Source: an uncultured Rickettsiales bacterium
GTDB taxonomy: Bacteria > Myxococcota_A > UBA796 > UBA9615 > CAYRNR01
Direction of reading: 5' to 3'
Length of the DNA: 64,000 nucleotides
Assembly (NCBI GenBank): GCA_964639985.1
Contig: CAZXHG010000013.1
Coordinates: 1,597-65,596 of the forward strand
The notes under the pieces were generated by a model. That model was given only the letters and a program-made list of their open reading frames with translations. It did not search any database and was not told the DNA's origin. Made by a program: the position numbers and the translations under genes. Within the stretch, counting starts at the first letter, position 1, and every line of letters starts with the position of its first letter. Of this stretch, positions 1,664-56,668 are shown one piece after another.

Positions 1664-2857
1664 CTACATCACGTGTTCGTACGCCAGGTCCTTCACCCCG
1701 AAGGGATCGTGGCACTGCACGCACACGTTGCGCGTGGCCATCTGCTCGCGCAGCTGGGTGGACACCTCGTCCAGCAGCCGCTCGCCCTCGGACACGTCCC
1801 CGCTCGCCTGCAGCACCACGGCCGCGGCCATGGCCGCGGCGTAGTCCGCGCCCGGCCCGTGGCAGCCCTCGCAGGTCACGCCCTCCTGCAGCCAGGTGTC
1901 GGTGACCGGGTCGTACCCGGTGGTGTGGCACTCCAGGCAGGGGGTGTTGTCCTCCACCGCCTCGAGGCGGTCGAAGGAGGTGAACTTGGTGGCGCGCCAG
2001 CGCTCCACGTGGCGCCGCTGTCGCGCCTCGTGGCAGCGCAGGCAGGCACCGGAGCCCACGTAGGGCACTGGTCTGCCGGACGAATCGTAGCCCGTCGCGT
2101 CGAGGCCCGTCGGAAGCCGCGGACGCCAGTGGGTGGCGTTGGCCGCCCACCAGGTGCGCCAGCGCCCCACGGCCTCGGCTCGTTCGGCCGCGGGCGCGTG
2201 GTACGCGTACCCGAGGTCCCGGCCCGTCAGCCGGCGCAGGCTGGCCACGGCCGCAGCGCGCTCGGCCTTGTCCCGGTGGTCCAGGGCGTCGACCAGCGGC
2301 TCGAGGGTGACTGCCGGGCCGCGGGTCCAGGGGCGCAGCATCATGAAGCGGTGCGCCTCGTCCGAGCGCAGGGCGCGGCCGTTGCCCCCGTGGCAGACCG
2401 TACAACCCCAGCCCTGGTAGGGGCTCTGGGGCCCGAGGCCGGGGTGCGTGGCAGCGAGGTCGTCCATGCCCGGGTGGCAGGTCCCGCAGCGCTCCACAGT
2501 GCCGTCGGGCGTGATCTGCTCGTCGATCCCCCGGGGGCGCTGCTCCCAGCGGGCGAGCCTCGCCTCGGCATGGTCGAGGTCGGCGCGGTACGCGGCCAGG
2601 TGCCGCAGCTCCGCTTCCCCGGCGTCGGGGGAACTCGCGGCCTCCTCGGCGCGGCGGTAGTCCAGGGATCTCTGCACGTCGTCGAACGTCTGTTGCTCGG
2701 CGAGCAGCGAGGCCTGCGCCGCCCCGCGCTGCTCGGCCACTCGCTGTCGCTGCACGGCGCGGTGCTCGGGGAACACCACCCGCCAGCACAGGGCGACCGT
2801 CACGGCCAGCGCGGCCACGGCGGCGATCGCGAAAAGGCGGCTGGGATCGCGGGTCAC
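1664..2857 (-). CDS. Membrane-anchored hexaheme cytochrome c
   Basis: 3' part of track ORF 1664..3457. GTG 2857 with GGAGG upstream, directly after the upstream stop. N-terminal TM helix, six CxxCH (CGTCH, CTVCH, CLRCH, CLECH, CEGCH, CVQCH), C-terminal c554-like YVGSGAC domain. Confidence 0.9.
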   Translation of the reverse strand: MTRDPSRLFAIAAVAALAVTVALCWRVVFPEHRAVQRQRVAEQRGAAQASLLAEQQTFDDVQRSLDYRRAEEAASSPDAGEAELRHLAAYRADLDHAEARLARWEQRPRGIDEQITPDGTVERCGTCHPGMDDLAATHPGLGPQSPYQGWGCTVCHGGNGRALRSDEAHRFMMLRPWTRGPAVTLEPLVDALDHRDKAERAAAVASLRRLTGRDLGYAYHAPAAERAEAVGRWRTWWAANATHWRPRLPTGLDATGYDSSGRPVPYVGSGACLRCHEARQRRHVERWRATKFTSFDRLEAVEDNTPCLECHTTGYDPVTDTWLQEGVTCEGCHGPGADYAAAMAAAVVLQASGDVSEGERLLDEVSTQLREQMATRNVCVQCHDPFGVKDLAYEHVM

Positions 2858-2859
2858 GC

Positions 2860-3534
2860 TCAGTACACCCCCTCCAGCCAGGGCCACACCCAGGCCCAGC
2901 CCGGACCGCGGAACAGGGCGCCGACCAGGGACAGCAGTACGGCCTCCACTGCGATCCAGGCTCCGATCCAGTGCACCGCAGGCCAGCGGGCCAGTCGCGC
3001 CATCGGCCCACGCGGCCGCTGGATCAGGCCGGGTGCGACCGCGAGGGCGCCGAACAGCGCCGTGGGCACCAGCAGGAGCCAGGGCGCGTGGTCCGCGGTC
3101 AGCGTCATCAGCCCCAGCGCGATCACCAGGCCACCGGCCATCAGCGCGGCCCTCCGCGGTTCGTTCGCCTCCCCGGTCCACAGCGGCCGGTGGGTCAGGT
3201 CCGGGCGGGTGTAGGGCACGACCAACAGCAGCACCACCGCGGCCGCGGGCACGGCCACCCCCGAGATCACGGGCGGGTAATAGTGCAGCAGTTCCTGCAG
3301 GCCCACGAAGTACCACGGCGCCTTGCTCGGATCCGGGGTCACAGACGGGTCCGCGATCTCCAGCAGGGGAGCGTCGACCACCAGGGCCAGCACCGACAGC
3401 GCGGCCATCACCAGCAGCCCGGCCGCGCACTCCAGCAGGAAGAAGCGGGGGAACCACGGCACCGTGGGCCGCGGATCACGGTGTGGCCCGTCCGGCGCGA
3501 CGTCGTGCACGCGTTGTCCGCCCGGCGTGGTCAT
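2860..3534 (-). CDS. petD: Cytochrome b/b6 C-terminal subunit (subunit IV / PetD-like)
   Basis: WFPRFF, APL..IADP..TPDPSKAPWYFVGLQELL (PEWY-equivalent), several TM helices; adjacent to cytochrome b6. Confidence 0.9.
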   Translation of the reverse strand: MTTPGGQRVHDVAPDGPHRDPRPTVPWFPRFFLLECAAGLLVMAALSVLALVVDAPLLEIADPSVTPDPSKAPWYFVGLQELLHYYPPVISGVAVPAAAVVLLLVVPYTRPDLTHRPLWTGEANEPRRAALMAGGLVIALGLMTLTADHAPWLLLVPTALFGALAVAPGLIQRPRGPMARLARWPAVHWIGAWIAVEAVLLSLVGALFRGPGWAWVWPWLEGVY

Positions 3535-47261: not shown

Positions 47262-48194
47262 TCACTCCACGAACGTCAGGTACACGGACCCCCACGTCGT
47301 CTGCGAGCGCAGCTCCACGCACCCCCGGTCGGTCATCACCAGGTCCTGGGTGTAGCGCCGCGTGGTGGCCGAGACCGGGTTGAGCTCGTCGAACACGTCC
47401 ATCGCCCAGATGGCCTGGATCAGGGATGCGGGCACGACCACCGTGCCGAGCGCGTCGTCCACGTCGCACACCAGCTCGGCGGGCAATGCGCCGTGCTGGT
47501 CGCTCTTGTAGATCGTGAAGCGGAACCGCGCGCCGGAGACCTCCCCTGGTGACCAGTCGCAGACGATATCCTCGTGGGCGGTCATGGTCAGCTCCTCGCA
47601 GATCGTCCCCAGAGGGGCGACACCGAGGGTGGTGAGCTCGAACGAGTCGAAATCCGAGCTGCCGGACGCGGCCACGGTGAGGAGGTCTCCGGGTGTGTAG
47701 AGATCGGGGAAGTCCGCGCCGCCGATGTAGACACCGTTGTCGATCTCGTCGAGGGTGAGGGGTGGGTCGGTACCGGTCACCGCCACCGCGCCCACGGAGA
47801 TCACCGCGGGCATGGTCCGGCACTCGTCCCCGAAGCCGCAGTACTCGTCCTCGTCGCATTCAGGCTCGCAGTGGGGAGGGTGATCCCAGCCGTACAGGAC
47901 GCAGTCGCCCTCCCGGTCGAGTTCGTCGAGGATCCAGGGCTCGGGCCCGTCCTCGACCATCCCGCCCACCCAGGTCTCGGGTGGGTTGTCGTCATCCACG
48001 GTCAGGTGGAAGTAGCCCCAGGTGGTGTAGCGGTCACACGCCTCCACGGGCGCGGTCGTGTCGTCGTCGTCGTCGGCCGTGTCGTCGTCGGCCGTGTCGT
48101 CGTCGGCCGCGTCGTCGTCGTCCCCAGCCGTGGTTCCGGCCGGGCATCCGAGGGCGAGCGCGAGGAGCAGCAGCGGGTACGGCGCACGGTGCAT
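47262..48194 (-). CDS. Hypothetical lipoprotein with poly-Asp linker and Cys-rich motif
   Basis: GGAGG RBS; LALGC lipobox; DDDTA repeats; CEPECDEDEYCGFGDEC. Confidence 0.8.
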   Translation of the reverse strand: MHRAPYPLLLLALALGCPAGTTAGDDDDAADDDTADDDTADDDDDTTAPVEACDRYTTWGYFHLTVDDDNPPETWVGGMVEDGPEPWILDELDREGDCVLYGWDHPPHCEPECDEDEYCGFGDECRTMPAVISVGAVAVTGTDPPLTLDEIDNGVYIGGADFPDLYTPGDLLTVAASGSSDFDSFELTTLGVAPLGTICEELTMTAHEDIVCDWSPGEVSGARFRFTIYKSDQHGALPAELVCDVDDALGTVVVPASLIQAIWAMDVFDELNPVSATTRRYTQDLVMTDRGCVELRSQTTWGSVYLTFVE

Positions 48195-48239
48195 GGGTCC
48201 TCCTGCGAGACGCACGGTGGGGGATGCGAAGAGACCGCT

Positions 48240-48450: not shown

Positions 48451-48526
48451 TGGCAGGCGAGGAAGGACTCGAACCTCCAGCCAACGGTTTTGGAGACCGC
48501 TGCTCTACCATTGGAGCTACTCGCCC
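48451..48526 (-). tRNA. trnW: tRNA-Trp (CCA)
   Basis: Cloverleaf; anticodon loop CT-CCA-AA; G73; encoded CCA end. Confidence 0.95.
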
Positions 48527-48535
48527 GCGATGAGC

Positions 48536-48620
48536 TGGTGGGTCAGGCAGGAATCGAACCTGCAAGCCAGCGGCGGCGGATCTACAGTCCGCTGGGCTCA
48601 CCACACTGCCCAACTGACCC
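48536..48620 (-). tRNA. trnY: tRNA-Tyr (GTA)
   Basis: Loop CT-GTA-GA; variable arm; encoded CCA. Confidence 0.92.
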
Positions 48621-48635
48621 ACGAAAAGGTGAAAC

Positions 48636-48715
48636 TGGTGGGGACGGTCCGGTTCGAACGGACGACCTCCTGGGCCACGACCAGGCGCTCTGACCAGAGA
48701 CTGAGCTACGTCCCC
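48636..48715 (-). tRNA. trnH: tRNA-His (GTG), atypical (C33, A73, no G-1)
   Basis: Loop TC-GTG-GC; acceptor GGGGACG/CGTCCCC; enlarged D-loop; encoded CCA. Confidence 0.8.
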
Positions 48716-48716
48716 G

Positions 48717-48791
48717 TGGCGACTCCCCGGAGATTCGAACTCCGAACCACGCGGTTAACAGCCGCGCGCTCAGCCGTTGAGCTAGGGAGTC
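48717..48791 (-). tRNA. trnN: tRNA-Asn (GTT)
   Basis: Loop CT-GTT-AA; G73; encoded CCA. Confidence 0.93.
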
Positions 48792-48797
48792 ATTTCC

Positions 48798-48874
48798 TGG
48801 TACCGCTGCCCGGACTCGAACCGGGAGCCTCCTGTGTATCAGACAGACGCTCTCGACCATTGAGCTACAGCGGT
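48798..48874 (-). tRNA. trnI: tRNA-Ile (GAT)
   Basis: Loop CT-GAT-AC; A73; encoded CCA. Confidence 0.92.
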
Positions 48875-48879
48875 ACGTG

Positions 48880-48954
48880 TGGAGGCGGCACCCGGACTCG
48901 AACCGGGGATCGAGGAGTTGCAGTCCTCTGCCTTTCCATCTTGGCCATGCCACC
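48880..48954 (-). tRNA. trnC: tRNA-Cys (GCA)
   Basis: Loop CT-GCA-AC; U73; encoded CCA. Confidence 0.93.
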
Positions 48955-48967
48955 TCGGGTACCTTCC

Positions 48968-49042
48968 TGGTCACAGGGGGAGGACTCGAACCTCGCGCTG
49001 GTCCGCTCATGAGACGGACAGGCACATCCCGTGCGCCCTGCG
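48968..49042 (-). tRNA. Atypical tRNA with CAT anticodon (Met/Ile2, possibly degenerate)
   Basis: Loop CT-CAT-GA; T-loop TTCGAGT; shortened D-arm without U8/A14; C-C mismatch at the base of the T-stem; encoded CCA. Confidence 0.6.
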
Positions 49043-49045
49043 ATC

Positions 49046-49121
49046 TGGAGCGGGTAGCCGGACTCGAACCGGCCGCCGTCTGGTTGGAAGCCAGGCGCTC
49101 TACCTGATGAGCTATACCCGC
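49046..49121 (-). tRNA. trnG: tRNA-Gly (TCC)
   Basis: Loop CT-TCC-AA; U73; encoded CCA. Confidence 0.93.
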
Positions 49122-49131
49122 CCGTGGATGA

Positions 49132-49218
49132 TGGTGCCGGAGGCGGGAGTCGAACCCGCACGACCACGAGGGCCACTGCGTCCTGAGCGCAGCGTGTCTG
49201 CCATTTCACCACCCCGGC
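49132..49218 (-). tRNA. trnL: tRNA-Leu (CAG)
   Basis: Loop CT-CAG-GA; long variable arm; encoded CCA. Confidence 0.95.
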
Positions 49219-49242
49219 AATGCCCCCTGTCGGGGGCTGAAC

Positions 49243-49318
49243 TGGAGCGCCCACCGGGAGTCGAACCCGGAATCTACGGATTAAGAGTCCGCCGCTCTAC
49301 CAGCTGAGCCATGGGCGC
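49243..49318 (-). tRNA. trnK: tRNA-Lys (CTT), U73
   Basis: Loop CT-CTT-AA; acceptor GCGCCCA/TGGGCGC; discriminator T; encoded CCA. Confidence 0.92.
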
Positions 49319-49319
49319 G

Positions 49320-49402
49320 TGGCGGGGGTGGGAGTCGAACCCACCTGCCCTCTCGGGACTGGGATATGAGCCCAGTGACCGGCCGTTGGTTCCATCCCCG
49401 CG
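49320..49402 (-). tRNA. Initiator-like tRNA-fMet (CAT) with a long variable arm
   Basis: 5' CGCGGGG, C1-C72 mismatch, GGG/CCC in the anticodon stem, loop CT-CAT-AT, 14-nt variable region CCC-GAGA-GGG; no encoded CCA. Confidence 0.75.
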
Positions 49403-49442
49403 TCATTTTCCTGTTGCACGTCACCTCGGGACTCCGGGCGGG

Positions 49443-49518
49443 TGGCGGGAGCGACGGGGCTCGAACCCGCTGCCTCCGGCTCGACAGGCCGGCGTCCTTC
49501 CTCCAGGACCTCGCCCCC
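49443..49518 (-). tRNA. trnD: tRNA-Asp (GTC)
   Basis: Loop CT-GTC-GA; G73; encoded CCA; first gene of the array. Confidence 0.92.
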
Positions 49519-49531
49519 GTAGCCACCCGGA

Positions 49532-49572
49532 CGTTCGTGTGACGCGCGATGAACGGTGTATTCGGTTGTCAA
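49532..49572 (-). promoter_or_regulatory. Putative tRNA-array promoter: consensus -35 with non-consensus -10 flanked by an inverted repeat
   Basis: TTGACA at 49572-49567; the 17-nt-spaced hexamer is TCGCGC; inverted repeat CGTTCGT (49532-38) / ATGAACG (49549-55). Confidence 0.4.
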
Positions 49573-49601
49573 AGTCCGCGTCGCCCGTGCCGGCCGGAAC
49601 G

Positions 49602-49634
49602 AAAAAAGCCGGACTGCCTTTCGGCGGCCCGGCT
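49602..49634 (-). terminator. Rho-independent terminator upstream of the tRNA array
   Basis: AGCCGGGCCGCC-GAAA-GGCAGTCCGGCT followed by a T run on the minus strand. Confidence 0.88.
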
Positions 49635-49660
49635 CCTGGTCATCGTCTGTGTCGATTCGC

Positions 49661-49792: not shown

Positions 49793-49898
49793 GGAAATCG
49801 GTCTCCTCCAGCCCCACGCGGGGCCCGGTTCTGCCGGTACATTCAGGCCTTTTCTCGCGCCACAGGAACGAGAGGAGGAGGAGGGGCGGGGGAGGGGC

Positions 49899-50516
49899 TC
49901 AGCCGAGCCCGTCCCAGCGGTCCAGTCGGACCTGGATGGCCGTCTCCGGTTCACCGAGGAAGGTCGCGAGGTCGGCGAGCGTGTACTCGTGGTCCCACAC
50001 ACCCTGGTACACGCGGGCGTCCACGATGCCGTCGTTGGACGCGTCCGCGAACAGCTCGTCGAGCGTGGGACGGTGGTCGAACCGCGGTGTCTCGCCGGTG
50101 GACGTGCCGAAGGTGCGGATGTTCTCCTCACGCGTCTGGCGGGCCCGAACGTGGCGCAGGCGGGGGAGGGAGGAGAAGTCGCCCGACAGCAGGTCGGCCG
50201 CGTACCGCGCCGTGAGGTCGGCGAGGCGATCGAGCACGTCGTCCTCGTCTTCACCGGAATGCGAGACGAGCTCGCCCTCACGCTGGGGGGCCCGGTCGCC
50301 GACCACCTGCTTGAGCCCGAACTGTTCGCCGCCCACGGGCCCGATGGTGACATAGGGATCACAGCCAGCGCCGAGCATCACCCTGAGCTCCACGGTGGTG
50401 CTGATGAAACAGACGACAGCTTCGCGTTGCCAGATCCGAGGTTCAACGGGCCGCAGCCCATGGTCGGCCGCGACTGCCGTGAACCTCTTCGTGGCTTCAC
50501 CTGCGCTCCGTTGCAT
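49899..50516 (-). CDS. Hypothetical protein with probable C-terminal helix-turn-helix
   Basis: RPTLDELF...YTLADLATFLG.PETAIQVRL resembles the C-terminal HTH of REP-associated tyrosine transposases, but no HUH catalytic motif is visible. Confidence 0.6.
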   Translation of the reverse strand: MQRSAGEATKRFTAVAADHGLRPVEPRIWQREAVVCFISTTVELRVMLGAGCDPYVTIGPVGGEQFGLKQVVGDRAPQREGELVSHSGEDEDDVLDRLADLTARYAADLLSGDFSSLPRLRHVRARQTREENIRTFGTSTGETPRFDHRPTLDELFADASNDGIVDARVYQGVWDHEYTLADLATFLGEPETAIQVRLDRWDGLG

Positions 50517-50593: not shown

Positions 50594-50651
50594 ATGGAAA
50601 GTGCCTGACCCCTCTCTCAGTACATTCAGGCCGTCCTCATGAAAGTGCTCT

Positions 50652-52172
50652 TCAGCGGCATCGCCGCGCCACCCACCACACACCCATGCCCACCACGACC
50701 AGCCAGCCACGCGGCGTGGCTTCGGCCACATCGCAGCTGCAATCATCGTCCACGATCACCACCCCCGTATCATCGTCCCCACCCGAGTCGTCATCATCCC
50801 CCGCGTTCGTGTCGTCGTCGTCATCTCCGCCGGTCACCACATCGACCCAGATCGGGCTGGTCCACACCTGCTCCAGGTCGGACTCCCCGCTGTCGTCGCA
50901 GACCACGCCCGCATCCGCCCACCAGGCTCCGCCGTCCACGTGCACGATCGCGTAGGCGACCACCGTGTCCCCCTCGTCGAGGACCATGGACAGGGTGTAG
51001 CGCCCGACCTCCAGTTCCTCCATGGCCGTACGCGAGAACTCCGGCCGCACCAGGTCGGCCCCATTCACGTGGGCCGCGTCCGCCGCCGACACCTGGATCG
51101 CGAACGTCACCTCGGTCCCGGCCTCGAACTCGATCTCCTCGCCGAAGCGCGCGACATCCACCCCATCGACCGTCACACGGAAATCCACCGGCAGCCTCGG
51201 CCCGGACGTGGCCTGGCCGCGCCGATCCCGTAGAGCCTCGTAGATCGCCGTGCGGTCCAGCGGCTCCCCCTCGGGCATCACCACCACGGTCAAACCACCC
51301 CCGTAGTTGACCGCGTTGTCCGCGAACCGAGGGTCGATGTCGCACACCGAACCAGGCCGGGTGTCGTGGGAGTCCGTCCCCGAGATGATGCCCATGCGCA
51401 GGCCGTAGTGGTCCGGTGACAGCGCCCGGTCCACGGTCGAATCCGGTCGCTCCGCGTTCGGGTCCACCGGATCGAAGTACCCGTCGTACGAGGGCGACGT
51501 GGAGTTGCCGTGCTCGCTGTAGTTCTCCACCACCGGGTTGTACGCCAGGTCCGCGCACATCCAGTCGGCGGCCCCCGGCGGCCGGATCGCGGGGTGGTGC
51601 GGGATCAGCAGCAGCGGGCCGAGGTCGCCCTCGAGGTCCCCCAGCAGGTCGAATATCTCGGGACAATCATCCGTGGTGAACGGCGGGTCGCCCGAGTCCC
51701 CGACCACGTCCAGCAGGCGGAGGTCCTGCAGGTCGTGCTCGTCCCCGAAGAAGTACAGGTTGCGGTGGTCGCGGATGTCGCCGCTGCCGTCCCAGAACCA
51801 CAGCTCCACCCCGGGCACGGTGACGAACCCGCCCTCCGGATCGTCCGCGGCCAGCAGGTCGACCACCTGCTGGTCCCAGTCGCCTGCGTGCCACACCGCG
51901 TGGATCCCGTTGCCGTGTTCGGTCAGCGACAGGAAGTCCAGGTCCCAGGTCTCCCGCGCGTCCTCGATCACGCTGGCGTACGGGCCGCAGGGGTAGCCGT
52001 CAGGGCAGACGTTGCCGGTGTCGGTCGAGTAGCCGTCGCGGGACAGCCCGGTGTGGGCGTGCAGGTCACCGTAGTAGTAGTCGAAGCCGGCGTGGTTGAT
52101 CGGGGACGCCCACCCATCGCGTTCGACAGCCGCCAGGCCGACGAGTACGCATGCGACCGCCCACCCGCGCAC
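50652..52172 (-). CDS. DUF3604/PHP-like metallohydrolase with MYXO-CTERM-like anchor
   Basis: YYYGDLHAHT, SLTEH, IPHHP, ENYSEHG, SGTDSHD; C-terminal DDDCSC + TM + RR. Confidence 0.82.
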   Translation of the reverse strand: MRGWAVACVLVGLAAVERDGWASPINHAGFDYYYGDLHAHTGLSRDGYSTDTGNVCPDGYPCGPYASVIEDARETWDLDFLSLTEHGNGIHAVWHAGDWDQQVVDLLAADDPEGGFVTVPGVELWFWDGSGDIRDHRNLYFFGDEHDLQDLRLLDVVGDSGDPPFTTDDCPEIFDLLGDLEGDLGPLLLIPHHPAIRPPGAADWMCADLAYNPVVENYSEHGNSTSPSYDGYFDPVDPNAERPDSTVDRALSPDHYGLRMGIISGTDSHDTRPGSVCDIDPRFADNAVNYGGGLTVVVMPEGEPLDRTAIYEALRDRRGQATSGPRLPVDFRVTVDGVDVARFGEEIEFEAGTEVTFAIQVSAADAAHVNGADLVRPEFSRTAMEELEVGRYTLSMVLDEGDTVVAYAIVHVDGGAWWADAGVVCDDSGESDLEQVWTSPIWVDVVTGGDDDDDTNAGDDDDSGGDDDTGVVIVDDDCSCDVAEATPRGWLVVVGMGVWWVARRCR

Positions 52173-52175
52173 GGC

Positions 52176-54449
52176 TCAGTGCCTCCGCCTCATCGCCAGC
52201 AGACCCAGCAGCGCCAGCCCCAGGGCGGCCCCTTGCTCGCCGGTCTCGCCTTCCGTGCGACACGCGCAGTCGTCGTCGTCCGCCACGTCGTCGTCCGCGC
52301 TGTCGTCGTCGTCCGCGCTGTCGTCGTCGTCCACGGTGTCGTCGTCATCATCGTCCGTGGCGCTGTCGTCGTCGTCCGTGGGCTCGCACAGCCCGGCCGG
52401 GTCGTCGGCGTCCGCGTCGCAGTCCGGATGCAGCCAGATGGGGCTGGTCCAGGCCTGGGCGCCGTCCTCCTGCAGCACGTGCACCCAGAACAGGGCGGGC
52501 TCGTCGAGCTCGTAGTCCGGGTCGGACGAGGCGAAGCCGAGCTCCGCGTCGTGCTCGCCGACCCCGAAGGTCCACTCCTTGACCACCTCGTCCTCGCCGC
52601 CGTCGAGGTACAGGCGGTGAAGGCTCACGGTCTCGAGGTTGTGGGTGGCGTGCACCTGCACCTCGAACGCCGGCTCGAACCCGATCAGCTCCTCGCCCAT
52701 GCGCGCCGCGTACCCCTCCTCGAAGGTGTCCAGCAGCACGATGATGCGCTCCATGTTGGACGTACCGTAGGACGCGCGGTCGCGGATCGCCTCCCACACG
52801 TCGTCTCGCTCGAGCTCGTCGGCCAGCACCGCGACCAGCCCACCCTTGGTGTTCTTGGTCGCCAGCGGGTTGCCCATGAACCCGTCGTGGTTGTCCGACG
52901 AGGCGATGATGCCCACGCGGTTGCCGAGCATCAGCCCGTCGAGCACGCCGCGCAGGCCATCGGACTCCATGGACGGGCCCCACTCGGAGAACACCTCGGC
53001 CGAGGGCCGGTACACGTCGTCGATCGCGGCCCAGCCGTTGCCGGTGTAGCGGGTGGCGTGGGGCACGGCGAACGCGCGCAGGCCGGGGTTGTCGTCCTCC
53101 ATGTCCTCGAGGAACGCGTACAGCCCGTCCCCGGAGTCCAGGTCGAGGATGCTGATGTCCACCGTGATCTCGCCGAAGCAGTCGTCGAAGTACACGTTGT
53201 GGTGGCCGCTGCCCGTGGGCGTTCCCATCCACTCGAAGGCGAGCACCGGAACGAACGTCTCGCTCTCGTGGATGGCGCAGCCGGTCATCAGGTCCTGCCA
53301 CAGGTCCTCGGCGTACACCTCGGTGGGCGGCAGCTTCATGGTCTCGGCCGCGAAGTCCAGGCCGGCCACGTCCTGCGCGTAGCGCAGGTTCTCGTCGATG
53401 TAGTCCCCGGCGTCGTCGGTGTACGACACGCCGTGGTGGCTGTGGATGTCGCCCCAGAAGATGTCCTGCTCCGGCGGGTCCGTGGTGACCACGCAGGGAT
53501 TGGACGTCGCCTGGATCCCGTCGGTGCCCATCACGGTGATGCGCAGCACGCCTTCCTCATCCGGGGTGGCCTCCAGATCGACCACGGCCGGGGCGGTCTC
53601 GGGCACGGGCACGTTGGCCACCAGGTCGGGCACGGACAGGCTCGGCTGGGTCACGAACGAGCCGCTGAAGCCCTCGACCGCGTTGCCGAACTGGTCGAGC
53701 AGGGCCACCTTCACCGGGATGGTCTCCCCCACCTGCGCGAACGACGGCAGCACCACGCGGGTCGCGGCCACGTCCTGCTCACCCCAGGTGCGCATCTGCG
53801 GCGCGGGCACGTCCAGCATGGCCCAGGTGGCGTTCTCGTCGGTGCGGCTGGCCACCGGCCAGTCGATGCGCTCGAAGGCCCGGTAGGGCACGCGCACGTG
53901 GCACTCGGCGCTGGCCGGCCCCAGCGGGGTCTCGTCGGCCATGCCGATGTACAGGGTGATCACGTCGCCCTGGACCAGGGATCCGTCGACCGTGATGGTG
54001 GTGTAGAGCTCCTGGTGGAAGTCCTCGGTGTGCTCCGGACGGTCGATGGCCACGTTCACCCCGGCCCCGTCCGTCTCGGCCCAGGCCAGGCCCTCGTAGC
54101 GGGCGGGATCCACGCCCTCCTGGTACAGGTCGTTGCAGTCCGCCGGGGCCGTGACCCAGTCCATCCACTTGGTGATCACGATGCCATGGAACACCGGGTC
54201 CAGCAGCAGGAAGCCACCCCCGGCGTCGAGCCCGGTCGGCCCCACCGTGAAGCTGAACTCCAGCGTCTCCAGGCCATGCACGGTGAACGGCGCGCTGCCG
54301 CCCAGCTGTAGCGTGCCCTCGCCCCCCTGGGCAAGGATCGGCGGCAGCTCCAGGGCGTGGCTCCGCCGTGCGGTGGGTTCGTCGACCGGGTGGTCTTGAC
54401 AGCCGGCAGTGACCAGCACTGCGAGCGCGAGGAGGTGGTGAAGGCGCAT
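52176..54449 (-). CDS. DUF3604/PHP-like metallohydrolase with MYXO-CTERM-like anchor
   Basis: FWGDIHSHH, HHNVYF, PHAT, EVFSEWG, ASSDNHDG; poly-Asp linker; DDDCAC + TM + RRRH. Confidence 0.85.
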   Translation of the reverse strand: MRLHHLLALAVLVTAGCQDHPVDEPTARRSHALELPPILAQGGEGTLQLGGSAPFTVHGLETLEFSFTVGPTGLDAGGGFLLLDPVFHGIVITKWMDWVTAPADCNDLYQEGVDPARYEGLAWAETDGAGVNVAIDRPEHTEDFHQELYTTITVDGSLVQGDVITLYIGMADETPLGPASAECHVRVPYRAFERIDWPVASRTDENATWAMLDVPAPQMRTWGEQDVAATRVVLPSFAQVGETIPVKVALLDQFGNAVEGFSGSFVTQPSLSVPDLVANVPVPETAPAVVDLEATPDEEGVLRITVMGTDGIQATSNPCVVTTDPPEQDIFWGDIHSHHGVSYTDDAGDYIDENLRYAQDVAGLDFAAETMKLPPTEVYAEDLWQDLMTGCAIHESETFVPVLAFEWMGTPTGSGHHNVYFDDCFGEITVDISILDLDSGDGLYAFLEDMEDDNPGLRAFAVPHATRYTGNGWAAIDDVYRPSAEVFSEWGPSMESDGLRGVLDGLMLGNRVGIIASSDNHDGFMGNPLATKNTKGGLVAVLADELERDDVWEAIRDRASYGTSNMERIIVLLDTFEEGYAARMGEELIGFEPAFEVQVHATHNLETVSLHRLYLDGGEDEVVKEWTFGVGEHDAELGFASSDPDYELDEPALFWVHVLQEDGAQAWTSPIWLHPDCDADADDPAGLCEPTDDDDSATDDDDDDTVDDDDSADDDDSADDDVADDDDCACRTEGETGEQGAALGLALLGLLAMRRRH

Positions 54450-54535
54450 GATCCCTCTTCAATAGGAACGGGGCCGGGCCGGGGCCAGTATAGCCGCTGA
54501 TCAGCGGGCCAAGGGGGGAACGGAGGGGCGGCGGT

Positions 54536-56668
54536 CTACGAGTCGTCGTCCGCCTCGGCCTCTTCGGTGCGCTGCATGGCGCTGCCCCAGCGGGCGAGCC
54601 AGAAGCACACGCCCACCAGGGCGAGGAAGGCCAGTACGCTGACGAACTGTCCGGGGAAGCCGGCGTAGTACTGGTAGAAGCTCTCGCCCATGCCGCCGGC
54701 CGCTGCCTCGTGGGCGCGCTCGCCCCAGGCGTGCAGGTCGATCTTCTTCATCGGCTCGCCGATCTGCGGTAGCAGCAGGATCGCGCCGATGGTGCCCACG
54801 ATGGCGGCGCCCGCCATCAGCCCCGAGGCGATCAGCGTGCCCTGCTCCCGGCGGGCGGCCCGGTCCTCCTCGCTGCTGCCGGACTTGCCGATAAAGTGGC
54901 CGGCGGCCGCGCCGGCGAACACGGCCATGTTGATCTCGATCGGCAGGTACATGCCCAGGCCGAACGCCAGCGCCGGTACGGACGCCATCTCCAGCAGGAT
55001 CGCGACCACGCCGCCGAGGGCGAACAGCAGCAGCGCCTGCTGCTCGCCGCCCATCACTCCGGAGACGATCGTGCCCATCACGTGCCCCTGGGGAGCGGGC
55101 AGGTTGGGGTTGGGGATCATGGCGCCGGTCTTGTCCTCGATCATGAAGCCGTAGGAGCTGGACAGCACCCAGATCACCAGGCCCACGCTGAACGAGGCGA
55201 CCACGATGCCGAGGTACTTCCAGCGCTGCTGCTGCACCGGGCTCGAGCCCAGCCAGTAACCGATCTTGAGGTCGGAGACGAACGCTCCCGAGGTGGACAG
55301 GCCGGTGCACACCGCGCAGCCCACGATCAGGGCCACGGACATGCCGACAGCGTCGCCGCGCAGGCCGGTGGCGACCAGGATCAGGCAGGCGATGATCAGC
55401 GTGATCATGGTCATGCCCGACACCGGGTTGACGCCCACGATGGCGATGGCGCGGGCCGCGACCGGGGTGAACAGGAAGGCCAGGACGTAGGTGACGACCG
55501 TGCCCACCAGCGCGGCGGTGACGCTCTCGCCCACGTACCAGAAGAGGAAGAACATGCCGATCACGCAGCCGACCTGGATCAGCAGGGTGTTGCGGGGGGA
55601 CATGTCGCGGTCGGTGCGCTCGATGGCCTCGCCGCCGCCGCCGCCGGTCAGGCCCTTGAAGGCCAGGGACAGCGAGCTGAGGATGATCTTCGACATCTTG
55701 ATGATGCCGATGAACCCGGCCACCGCGATGCAGCCGATGCCGATGGGGCGGATGTAGGTGCCCCACACCGCGCCGGCGTCCATGTCGCGGATCAGGGTCT
55801 CGACCACGGGCGGGGTCAGCGGCTGGTCCAGCCCGGACGCCGCGAAGTACACCAGCGGCACCATCACCAGCGTCGACAGCACCGAGCCCGCGGCGATGAT
55901 GCCCGCGTAGCGCGGCCCGATGATGTAGCCGAGCCCGAAGTACACCGCCGTAGCGTTGAGCTTGAGCTCGAAGCGGGCCTCGGACAGGCGCGCGCCGACC
56001 CCGGTGAGCAGCACCTTGGTGTTGAGGTGGTGGTTCCACAGGTGGAGGAACTCCACGAACAGGTCGTAGATGAACCCGATGCCGAACGCGGCCAGCAGCA
56101 CCTTGCCGGACGCGCCCTTGGCCTTCTCGCCGGCCGCGAGCACGTTGGTGATGGCCGTGGCCTCGGGGAAGGGCAGCTGGCCGTGCAGGTCCTTGACGAA
56201 GTAGCGCCGCAGCGGGATGAGCAGCACCACGCCGAGGAAGCCACCGAACATGCACGACAGCGCGATCTGGATGAACGACGGCTGCAGATCCAGGATGTAC
56301 AGCGCCGGGATGGTGAAGATTGCGCCGGCCACGACCACGCCCGAGGCCTGGCCGATGGACTGGATGATCACGTTCTCCAGCAGGTGGTTGCGCCGCTTGA
56401 AGAACCGCGCCATCAGCGTGTTGCCGAAGAACACCGCCAGGATCGCGATCGGGATCGAGGTCTCGATCACGTTGCCGGTCTTCAGCCCGATGTAGGCCGC
56501 GGCAAAGGTGAACAGCACCACCGCGCCCACGCCGTAGAGCACCGCTCGCAGCGTCACCTCAGGGGGTGCCTCCTGGGGCGAGACGACCGGCTCATAGGTC
56601 TCACCGGGTTCGAGCTCCCGGAATGCGTTGGGCGGCAGGACCTTGCTCTTGCCCGGGCTGACTTCCAT
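54536..56668 (-). CDS. OPT-family oligopeptide / metal-chelate transporter
   Basis: EVTLRAV, YIGLKTG, SIPIAI, LENVIIQS, LPFPEATA, SDLKIGYWLG, APQG, FGLGMYLP, ASGLMAG. Confidence 0.93.
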   Translation of the reverse strand: MEVSPGKSKVLPPNAFRELEPGETYEPVVSPQEAPPEVTLRAVLYGVGAVVLFTFAAAYIGLKTGNVIETSIPIAILAVFFGNTLMARFFKRRNHLLENVIIQSIGQASGVVVAGAIFTIPALYILDLQPSFIQIALSCMFGGFLGVVLLIPLRRYFVKDLHGQLPFPEATAITNVLAAGEKAKGASGKVLLAAFGIGFIYDLFVEFLHLWNHHLNTKVLLTGVGARLSEARFELKLNATAVYFGLGYIIGPRYAGIIAAGSVLSTLVMVPLVYFAASGLDQPLTPPVVETLIRDMDAGAVWGTYIRPIGIGCIAVAGFIGIIKMSKIILSSLSLAFKGLTGGGGGEAIERTDRDMSPRNTLLIQVGCVIGMFFLFWYVGESVTAALVGTVVTYVLAFLFTPVAARAIAIVGVNPVSGMTMITLIIACLILVATGLRGDAVGMSVALIVGCAVCTGLSTSGAFVSDLKIGYWLGSSPVQQQRWKYLGIVVASFSVGLVIWVLSSSYGFMIEDKTGAMIPNPNLPAPQGHVMGTIVSGVMGGEQQALLLFALGGVVAILLEMASVPALAFGLGMYLPIEINMAVFAGAAAGHFIGKSGSSEEDRAARREQGTLIASGLMAGAAIVGTIGAILLLPQIGEPMKKIDLHAWGERAHEAAAGGMGESFYQYYAGFPGQFVSVLAFLALVGVCFWLARWGSAMQRTEEAEADDDS

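Follow-up and report, generated by a model that had tools for sequence, protein, structure and literature searches.

An initiator-type tRNA(CAU) with a long variable arm in a bacterial tRNA array, and its relatives in viral contigs and other arrays

The tRNA array downstream of ftsZ

The DNA analysed here, a stretch of 64,000 nt referred to as the window, belongs to a bacterial chromosome of approximately 70% G+C. Its plus strand carries a dcw cluster with murC, ddl, ftsQ and ftsZ, the best named relatives of the FtsZ protein are found in the Myxococcota, and the DNA sequencing runs that contain this stretch are marine metagenomes. Downstream of ftsZ lies an array of tRNA genes (Table 1) for Asp, initiator-type Met, Lys, Leu, Gly, an odd second CAU tRNA, Cys, Ile, Asn, His, Tyr and Trp. 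Ten of these genes were called by ARAGORN, the tRNA-His gene was added using Rfam, and the second CAU tRNA-like gene completes the set. The whole cluster is located inside the window at a density of about 11 tRNA genes per kb, and 11 other tRNA genes are found within 1.1 kb of the initiator.

The tRNA-His gene (anticodon GUG) has an enlarged D loop and scores 58 bits with Rfam, with no ARAGORN call. The second CAU gene, located between tRNA-Gly and tRNA-Cys, was missed both by ARAGORN at default settings and by Rfam. Its acceptor stem (CGCAGGG/CCCUGUG) comprises 7 bp including 1:72 and is followed by A73 and an encoded CCA; the D arm is very compact, the anticodon loop reads CUCAUGA (G37), and one mismatch interrupts the T stem. 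ARAGORN reports the gene as tRNA-Met only at a threshold of 95% and in a poorer register, and the covariance model R1 described below gives it 19.8 bits at 48971-49042. It could be the elongator Met or Ile2 tRNA of the array, or a pseudogene.

Table 1. Positions of the tRNA array, the parts of the initiator-type tRNA(CAU) and neighbouring sequence features in the window.
Feature	Position	Strand	Description and source
317-aa ORF	47262-48215	-	between ftsZ and the array
tRNA array, 12 genes	48451-49518	-	downstream of ftsZ; ARAGORN, Rfam
tRNA-His	48639-48715	-	Rfam
CAU tRNA-like gene	48968-49042	-	
Initiator-type tRNA(CAU) with long variable arm	49320-49402	-	83 nt; C1 = 49402, discriminator A73 = 49320
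Acceptor 3' strand CCCCGCC, A73 and a single C (possible C74)	49319-49327	-	sequence
T arm GUGGG-UUCGACU-CCCAC	49328-49344	-	perfect; ARAGORN, R1 alignment
Variable arm U-CCC-GAGA-GGG-CAG	49345-49358	-	14 nt: 3-bp stem, GNRA tetraloop GAGA, 3-nt tail
Anticodon arm CUGGG-CUCAUAU-CCCAG	49359-49375	-	anticodon CAU 49366-49368, U38 = 49364; sequence, ARAGORN
D arm G(a)ACC-AACGGCC-GGUC	49377-49392	-	4 bp and one bulged A, subfamily motif AACGG in the loop; R1 alignment
Acceptor/D-stem linker AUG	49393-49395	-	3 nt (canonical, 2 nt); ARAGORN bracket string 'sss'
Acceptor stem 5' strand CGCGGGG	49396-49402	-	6 bp and unpaired C1.C72; sequence, ARAGORN drawing
TTGACA	49567-49572	-	perfect match; 49 nt upstream of tRNA-Asp
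GC-rich hairpin, then T run	~49601-49641	-	just before TTGACA
20-nt direct repeat, first copy	49830-49849		TCTGCCGGTACATTCAGGCC
205-aa ORF	49899-50516	-	just upstream of the array
20-nt direct repeat, second copy	50613-50632		TCTCTCAGTACATTCAGGCC; 85% between copies

In relatives whose FtsZ is 83, 76 and 69% identical, the same dcw cluster is present and no tRNA gene is found downstream of ftsZ (loci without an array at this position: L187 and L189-L192). Two of these loci, L189 and L190, keep a block of DUF3604, a 761-aa protein and OPT that matches window positions 50652-56668, with no tRNA gene in between. The genes between ftsZ and this block also differ from those of the window, L190 carrying an RF-1 domain protein there. 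From this gene order, we interpret the array as a lineage-specific insertion into a variable spot. Since it is absent from the site in the relatives, and given the distribution of the tRNA family over phages and arrays described below, the array was probably acquired horizontally. Neither an integrase nor a phage gene was found around it using Pfam and PHROGs, the small flanking ORFs being without a match, and a repeat search yielded no flanking repeats of the array.

A scan of the array region for promoter and terminator consensus sequences called nothing. By eye, a perfect TTGACA precedes tRNA-Asp, itself preceded by a GC-rich hairpin followed by a T run; the hairpin and T run could mark the end of the upstream gene and TTGACA a candidate promoter of the array. 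Upstream of the array, two copies of a direct repeat bracket a 205-aa ORF without a Pfam or PHROG match. On the other side, the 317-aa ORF begins with a signal- or lipoprotein-like sequence and includes an Asp-rich repeat, for which GTCGTC repeats code. It has no match in Pfam or PHROGs, and its product is not homologous to the 279-aa protein of a relative.

Anatomy of the initiator-type tRNA

In bacteria, long variable arms are by textbook classification confined to the tRNAs for Leu, Ser, Tyr and Sec, and few known RNAs are as highly conserved as initiator tRNAs. ARAGORN calls a tRNA-Met(cat) at 49319-49402 on the minus strand, which reads CGCGGGGAUGGAACCAACGGCCGGUCACUGGGCUCAUAUCCCAGUCCCGAGAGGGCAGGUGGGUUCGACUCCCACCCCCGCCAC from 49402 to 49319. 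The parts given in Table 1, with a single A between the D and anticodon arms, make up this RNA. An earlier note, made from the letters of this DNA, had described initiator hallmarks, namely 5' CGCGGGG, an unpaired 1:72, three G-C pairs closing the anticodon loop and CAU; all are present on the minus strand, in the sequence as well as in the ARAGORN output. Position 1:72 is a C.C mismatch, followed by the pairs G2:C71, C3:G70 and G4:C69, and the anticodon loop is closed by G29:C41, G30:C40 and G31:C39. The CCC-GAGA-GGG hairpin in the variable region is likewise found, as a 3-bp stem with a GAGA tetraloop. The D stem, rightly called irregular and weak in the ARAGORN fold, is best read from the R1 alignment as four pairs (G:C, A:U, C:G and C:G, no non-standard pair being flagged) and one bulged A behind the 3-nt linker. 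With that A read as a bulge, the purine11:pyrimidine24 pair is present as A11:U24. Position 38 is U, the usual base being A. It falls at the known enteric VapC cut site, A38/C39, reported by Winther and Gerdes in 2011.

Downstream of A73, a single C (49319) separates the tRNA from G1 of tRNA-Lys (49318), so CCA is not encoded, in agreement with the earlier note as regards both the missing CCA and the 1-nt spacer. All 10 neighbouring tRNAs drawn by ARAGORN encode CCA, the initiator being the sole gene of the array without it.

Alternative registers were considered in a manual refolding, and only a 7/5 acceptor/T branch fits. Taking G4 as the start and G73 plus the internal 'CCA' of CCCCGCCAC for the 3' end reduces the T stem to 2 bp, and this register was rejected. 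Branches of 8/4 and 9/3 create mismatches, registers with an 8-bp acceptor giving a 2-bp T stem or more mismatches, and a 6-bp T stem breaks the acceptor stem. Minimum free energy folding alone is uninformative, for the window tRNA (z = -0.7) and likewise for the genuine neighbouring tRNAs.

The window tRNA carries all acceptor-end features of formylation, plus A11:U24. The determinants listed for methionyl-tRNA formyltransferase are an unpaired 1:72, A73, G2:C71, C3:G70 and G4:C69, while CAU alone suffices for MetRS (PMC9976931).

A family of long-arm initiators

The earlier note had proposed a search of tRNA databases and metagenomes for CAT tRNAs with a long variable arm. Pattern scans of genomes and viral contigs brought out a large family, of which the window tRNA, which had seemed a one-off oddity, is one member. 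The search pattern combined an initiator-type anticodon arm with an over-long variable region (GGGCTCATAWCCC, followed by the T loop 17-26 nt later) and was applied to one genome per species from 185,579 species. This gave 66 loci, about 20 of which are true long-arm tRNA(CAU) genes, the rest including canonical initiators with masked bases or insertions. Nearly all of the approximately 20 true examples reside in tRNA arrays, in metagenome-assembled genomes (MAGs) assigned to Polyangiaceae, Anaeromyxobacteraceae, Acidimicrobiia, Gaiellaceae, Lentisphaeria and others; among the 66 matches, no true example comes from the genome of a cultured isolate. The same scan of 2.9 million viral contigs yielded at least 120 loci, and 115 of the 120 viral candidates among the matches listed are tRNA-Met according to ARAGORN, many on contigs of 200-530 kb. 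Per scanned collection, long-arm initiators are far commoner in viral contigs.

Removal of duplicates and filtering left 91 distinct tRNAs among the matches listed: 75 viral, 15 genomic and that of the window. At least three other tRNA genes are present within 2 kb for 62 of 88 members among the matches listed. BLAST searches of GenBank phages with the array and with the window tRNA returned generic tRNA matches or nothing. Two abundant viral members gave partial matches only, one of which led to a 91-nt long-arm example in an unannotated phage genome of 735 kb in GenBank (LR756501.1). On one viral contig with a long-arm initiator (L109), a full-length tmRNA (Rfam, 92.8 bits) is located in the tRNA cluster, at 2770-3133 on the minus strand.

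The general tRNA model of Rfam recognizes the members L027, L039 and L091 with 40-43 bits and misses L063, L166 and the window tRNA, the latter even at E ≤ 1, compared with 50-72 bits for its array neighbours. Because general tRNA models miss some members, the family is likely under-counted in genome and virome surveys. The family appears to be mainly phage-borne or located in horizontally acquired tRNA arrays and is apparently undescribed: in the literature on non-canonical tRNAs, tRNA arrays and phage tRNAs, as far as it was covered, no mention of an initiator with such an arm was found.

Conservation of the three G-C pairs, CAU and the T loop proves nothing in this collection, as these were imposed by the search patterns; the acceptor end was not selected for. 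There, among the 91 tRNAs of the matches listed, 64 have a mismatch at 1:72, 23 have a weak pair (A:U or U:A), and just 2 have G:C or C:G. G2:C71 is found in 84/91, C3:G70 in 86/91, G4:C69 in 77/91 and A73 in 77/91, again among the matches listed. These features of the family coincide with the formyltransferase determinants (PMC9976931). The C.C at 1:72 recurs in the phage member L166, which encodes CCA. This recurrence of formylation-type acceptor features in relatives strengthens the reading of the gene as an initiator-type tRNA with a class II variable arm, on which the earlier note had settled.

The variable arm behaves as a real structure. A variable-region hairpin of at least 3 bp can be formed by 78 of the 91 members among the matches listed, compared with 51 ± 4 in shuffles. 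Where the variable region measures 14 nt, 18 of 22 members among the matches listed follow the exact register N-SSS-LLLL-SSS-NNN with at least 12 different stem sequences, and the window arm fits this register. In an 18-sequence alignment, compensatory changes on both sides occur at all three arm pairs. Of the arm cells, 97.8% are paired; shuffling lowers this to 76.4%, and sliding the partners to 58.5% or less. In 43 of 91 members among the matches listed, the arm ends in a GNRA loop on a stem of 2 bp or more, as does that of the window tRNA with its GAGA loop. The tRNA-Leu genes of the L027 and L063 arrays carry GAAA, GCAA and GAGA loops on 3-bp stems. Since this is the same layout, the extra arm of the initiator may have been borrowed from tRNA-Leu of related arrays.

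The closest relatives share the altered acceptor/D junction. An extra A after the acceptor stem (an A-U/C-N linker) occurs in 12 of 91 members among the matches listed, most of them with the D-loop motif ACGG. All 11 other A-linker members among the matches listed have A38, the window tRNA having U38. A scan of metagenomes using only the 5' half of the subfamily design, with the variable region unconstrained, added about a dozen members whose variable regions measure 9-16 nt, in most cases 12-16 nt; it also caught ordinary short-loop initiators with an acceptor stem ending in A7. A covariance model, R1, was constructed from 18 subfamily members with the window sequence left out. In the window, R1 matched 49320-49402 end to end (80.2 bits, E 1.9e-18), and the next-best match was an ordinary tRNA-Leu at 42 bits, other array tRNAs scoring at or below this value. 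This leaves a negligible probability that the tRNA is a chance match or a gene-finder artefact, as its being called by ARAGORN only and not by Rfam might have implied, all the more so as it fits exactly between two array tRNA genes.

The junction in which A73 and a C are followed directly by the next tRNA is also found in L027 and, by sequence, in L063, L200, L202, L230, L238 and L244. In the arrays of L027, L063 (both Polyangiaceae MAGs) and L022 (a Lentisphaeria MAG), the abutting order tRNA-Arg(CCG), long-arm initiator and a tRNA-Met of 69-70 nt recurs; L200, L202, L230, L238 and L244 are metagenome contigs, several from soil, on which only the junction from initiator to small tRNA-Met was read. 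The shared order suggests one array type spreading between phyla. Furthermore, a 251-nt contig from a metatranscriptome shows 2 differences from 49292-49406; its flanks are unrelated, so that it stems from another locus. A near-identical (98%) gene is thus present in different surroundings. It may be transcribed there, or the contig may come from contaminating DNA.

Two further groups came to light. Twelve loci (L012, L023, L048, L100, L112, L127, L138, L139, L149, L155, L159 and L183) form a separate class of long-arm tRNA(CAU) with a fully paired acceptor (e.g. ACCGUCG/CGACGGU), a Leu/Ser-like D arm (CCAGAGUGG...), the loop CUCAUAU and a 4-bp variable stem, apparently a class II elongator that carries a Met/Ile2 anticodon. 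Phage initiator-like tRNAs from L070, L083, L114, L121, L134, L139, L153 and L163 read ...AGGUCGUCAUAAACGGUUCGAAUCCUAC... before the T loop and cannot form a normal T stem; they could contain a 10-nt insertion in the T stem or adopt an unusual fold.

Function, alternatives and comparison with known systems

Building on the anatomy of the gene, its family membership, the covariation in the arm, the association with phages and arrays and the absence of the array from relatives, we consider it probable, with moderate confidence, that the window tRNA is a functional, extra (supernumerary) initiator tRNA of the phage/array type, acquired horizontally. Its processing, charging, formylation and use in initiation are predicted from established tRNA identity rules, and any role of the extra arm would be hypothetical. 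The array would be transcribed as one precursor, and RNase P cleavage at G1 of tRNA-Lys would leave an initiator ending in A73-C74, to be completed by the CCA-adding enzyme. MetRS would charge it via the CAU anticodon. The 1:72 mismatch, G2:C71, C3:G70, G4:C69, A73 and A11:U24 should make it acceptable to the formyltransferase, the mismatch would also keep it off EF-Tu, and the three G-C pairs would steer it to the 30S P site. Its likely role would be to supplement the initiators of the host, or to take their place, whenever these are damaged or in short supply, in line with proposals for phage tRNAs and long arrays. The ideas of the earlier note, an initiator for times of stress or one resistant to VapC, would fit such published proposals on arrays (PMC8421152) and phage tRNAs (PMC10264068).

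As judged from its sequence, the window copy looks weaker than some relatives: Rfam misses it, its D stem contains a bulged A, position 38 is U and CCA is not encoded. The same four traits, of which the Rfam miss and the lack of CCA set it apart from its array neighbours, would be expected of a decaying copy, that is a pseudogene of a real family left in an acquired array and yielding no functional tRNA; pseudogenes are known in long arrays, with 3 of 26 in Anabaena (PMC8421152). We nevertheless regard decay as unlikely: the four stems are intact without a non-standard pair, the tRNA aligns with R1 over its full length at 80 bits, and L063 and L166 are missed by the Rfam model as well. Moreover, among the matches listed, a lone C follows the discriminator in 46 of 91 members and U38 is found in 16 of 91, and the 98% identical copy elsewhere was recovered from an RNA library.

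There is also a small chance that the RNA is tRNA-shaped without being an initiator, serving as a toxin decoy or sponge, as an elongator or lysidine-modified Ile decoder, or being mischarged by a synthetase of the LeuRS, SerRS or TyrRS type. Its arm, which ends in a 3-nt 3' tail, is similar to that of tRNA-Leu in arrays of this kind, A73 is the discriminator of Leu and Tyr as well, 1:72 is paired in 25 of 91 members among the matches listed, and certain irregular tRNAs encoded close to toxin-antitoxin genes do not function in translation (PMC5389517). Against this, the 1:72 mismatch combined with G2:C71, C3:G70, G4:C69, A73 and A11:U24 constitutes a specific formylation signature and disfavours use by EF-Tu, and CAU alone is enough for MetRS (PMC9976931); the stem of only 3 bp and the absence of G73 argue against Ser, and CAU against Tyr.

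Finally, the gene lies in the core chromosome beside the dcw/ftsZ cluster, amid high-scoring, CCA-encoding tRNAs for common codons, as would befit a housekeeping gene in an ordinary chromosomal tRNA operon that supplies the main or only initiator of the host. This is very improbable, as three relatives lack the array at this position and hardly any family members occur outside phage contigs and tRNA arrays, with no true member from a cultured isolate among the 66 genome matches.

Returning to a functional, horizontally acquired extra initiator, we can offer a bolder extension, though a doubtful one. Long-arm initiators would then be a widespread, so far undescribed class of phage-borne initiators in which the GNRA-capped arm and the altered acceptor/D junction are functional, conferring insensitivity to initiator-disabling enzymes of hosts or rivals (VapC-type cleavage, toxin acetylation) or providing a handle for a phage-encoded factor, and so securing a private initiator supply in conflict. 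Translation initiation would in that case be a possible battleground of phage and host. An extra arm that recurs and covaries on initiator-type tRNAs would amount to a new structural class of initiator, and the family would offer a natural test of the tolerance of MetRS, formyltransferase, IF2/IF3 and the P site to changes in the tRNA body.

Compared with E. coli tRNA-fMet (metZWV/metY type), the window tRNA shares CAU, the three G-C pairs, the unpaired 1:72, G2:C71, C3:G70, G4:C69, A73, A11:U24 and 5' CGCGGGG. It differs in having a 14-nt hairpin as variable arm instead of a 5-nt loop, a 3-nt instead of a 2-nt acceptor/D linker, a C.C instead of a C.A mismatch, U38, a 7-nt AACGGCC D loop and no encoded CCA. 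The class I body of bacterial initiators, with a variable loop of 4-5 nt and a 2-nt linker at positions 8-9, is thus not that of the window tRNA.

With the horizontally transferred long arrays (the trn operon of Anabaena, PMC8421152; array units, PMC4758250, PMC5966550) and phage clusters (PMC10264068), the window array shares tightly packed tRNA genes on one strand, a relation to phage-borne sets and non-canonical details in some members; as far as the syntenic site in three relatives shows, it is likewise absent from close relatives. In contrast to tRNA array units, defined by at least 20 tRNA genes at no fewer than 2 per kb (PMC4758250), it has only 12 genes and remains below the 20-gene threshold. 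L-arrays are supernumerary and absent from close relatives (PMC8421152); the window array, which is lacking at the syntenic site in three relatives, may be one of them. In the searchable parts of PMC8421152, PMC4758250, PMC5966550 and PMC10264068, no initiator with a long variable arm is described.

A long arm combined with an anticodon other than those of Leu, Ser, Tyr or Sec is shared with allo-tRNAs and selC* tRNA-Cys (PMC5389517, PMC7609411) and with nematode nev-tRNAs (PMC3333845). Such class II tRNAs with unexpected anticodons were likewise mined from genomes and metagenomes, and some are located in phage tRNA clusters. They have an 8/4 or 9/3 branch or Ser/Leu identity and are elongators, if active at all. 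The acceptor of 8-9 bp and shortened T stem that mark allo-tRNAs and tRNA-Sec-like molecules, with their 8/4, 9/3 or 8/5 branches, are absent from the window tRNA. Of the features of class II elongators, it has the long variable arm (14 nt, 3-bp stem), without a matching anticodon, a paired 1:72 or the G73 of Ser. The window tRNA combines a normal 7/5 branch and a short 3-bp arm with the identity elements of an initiator.
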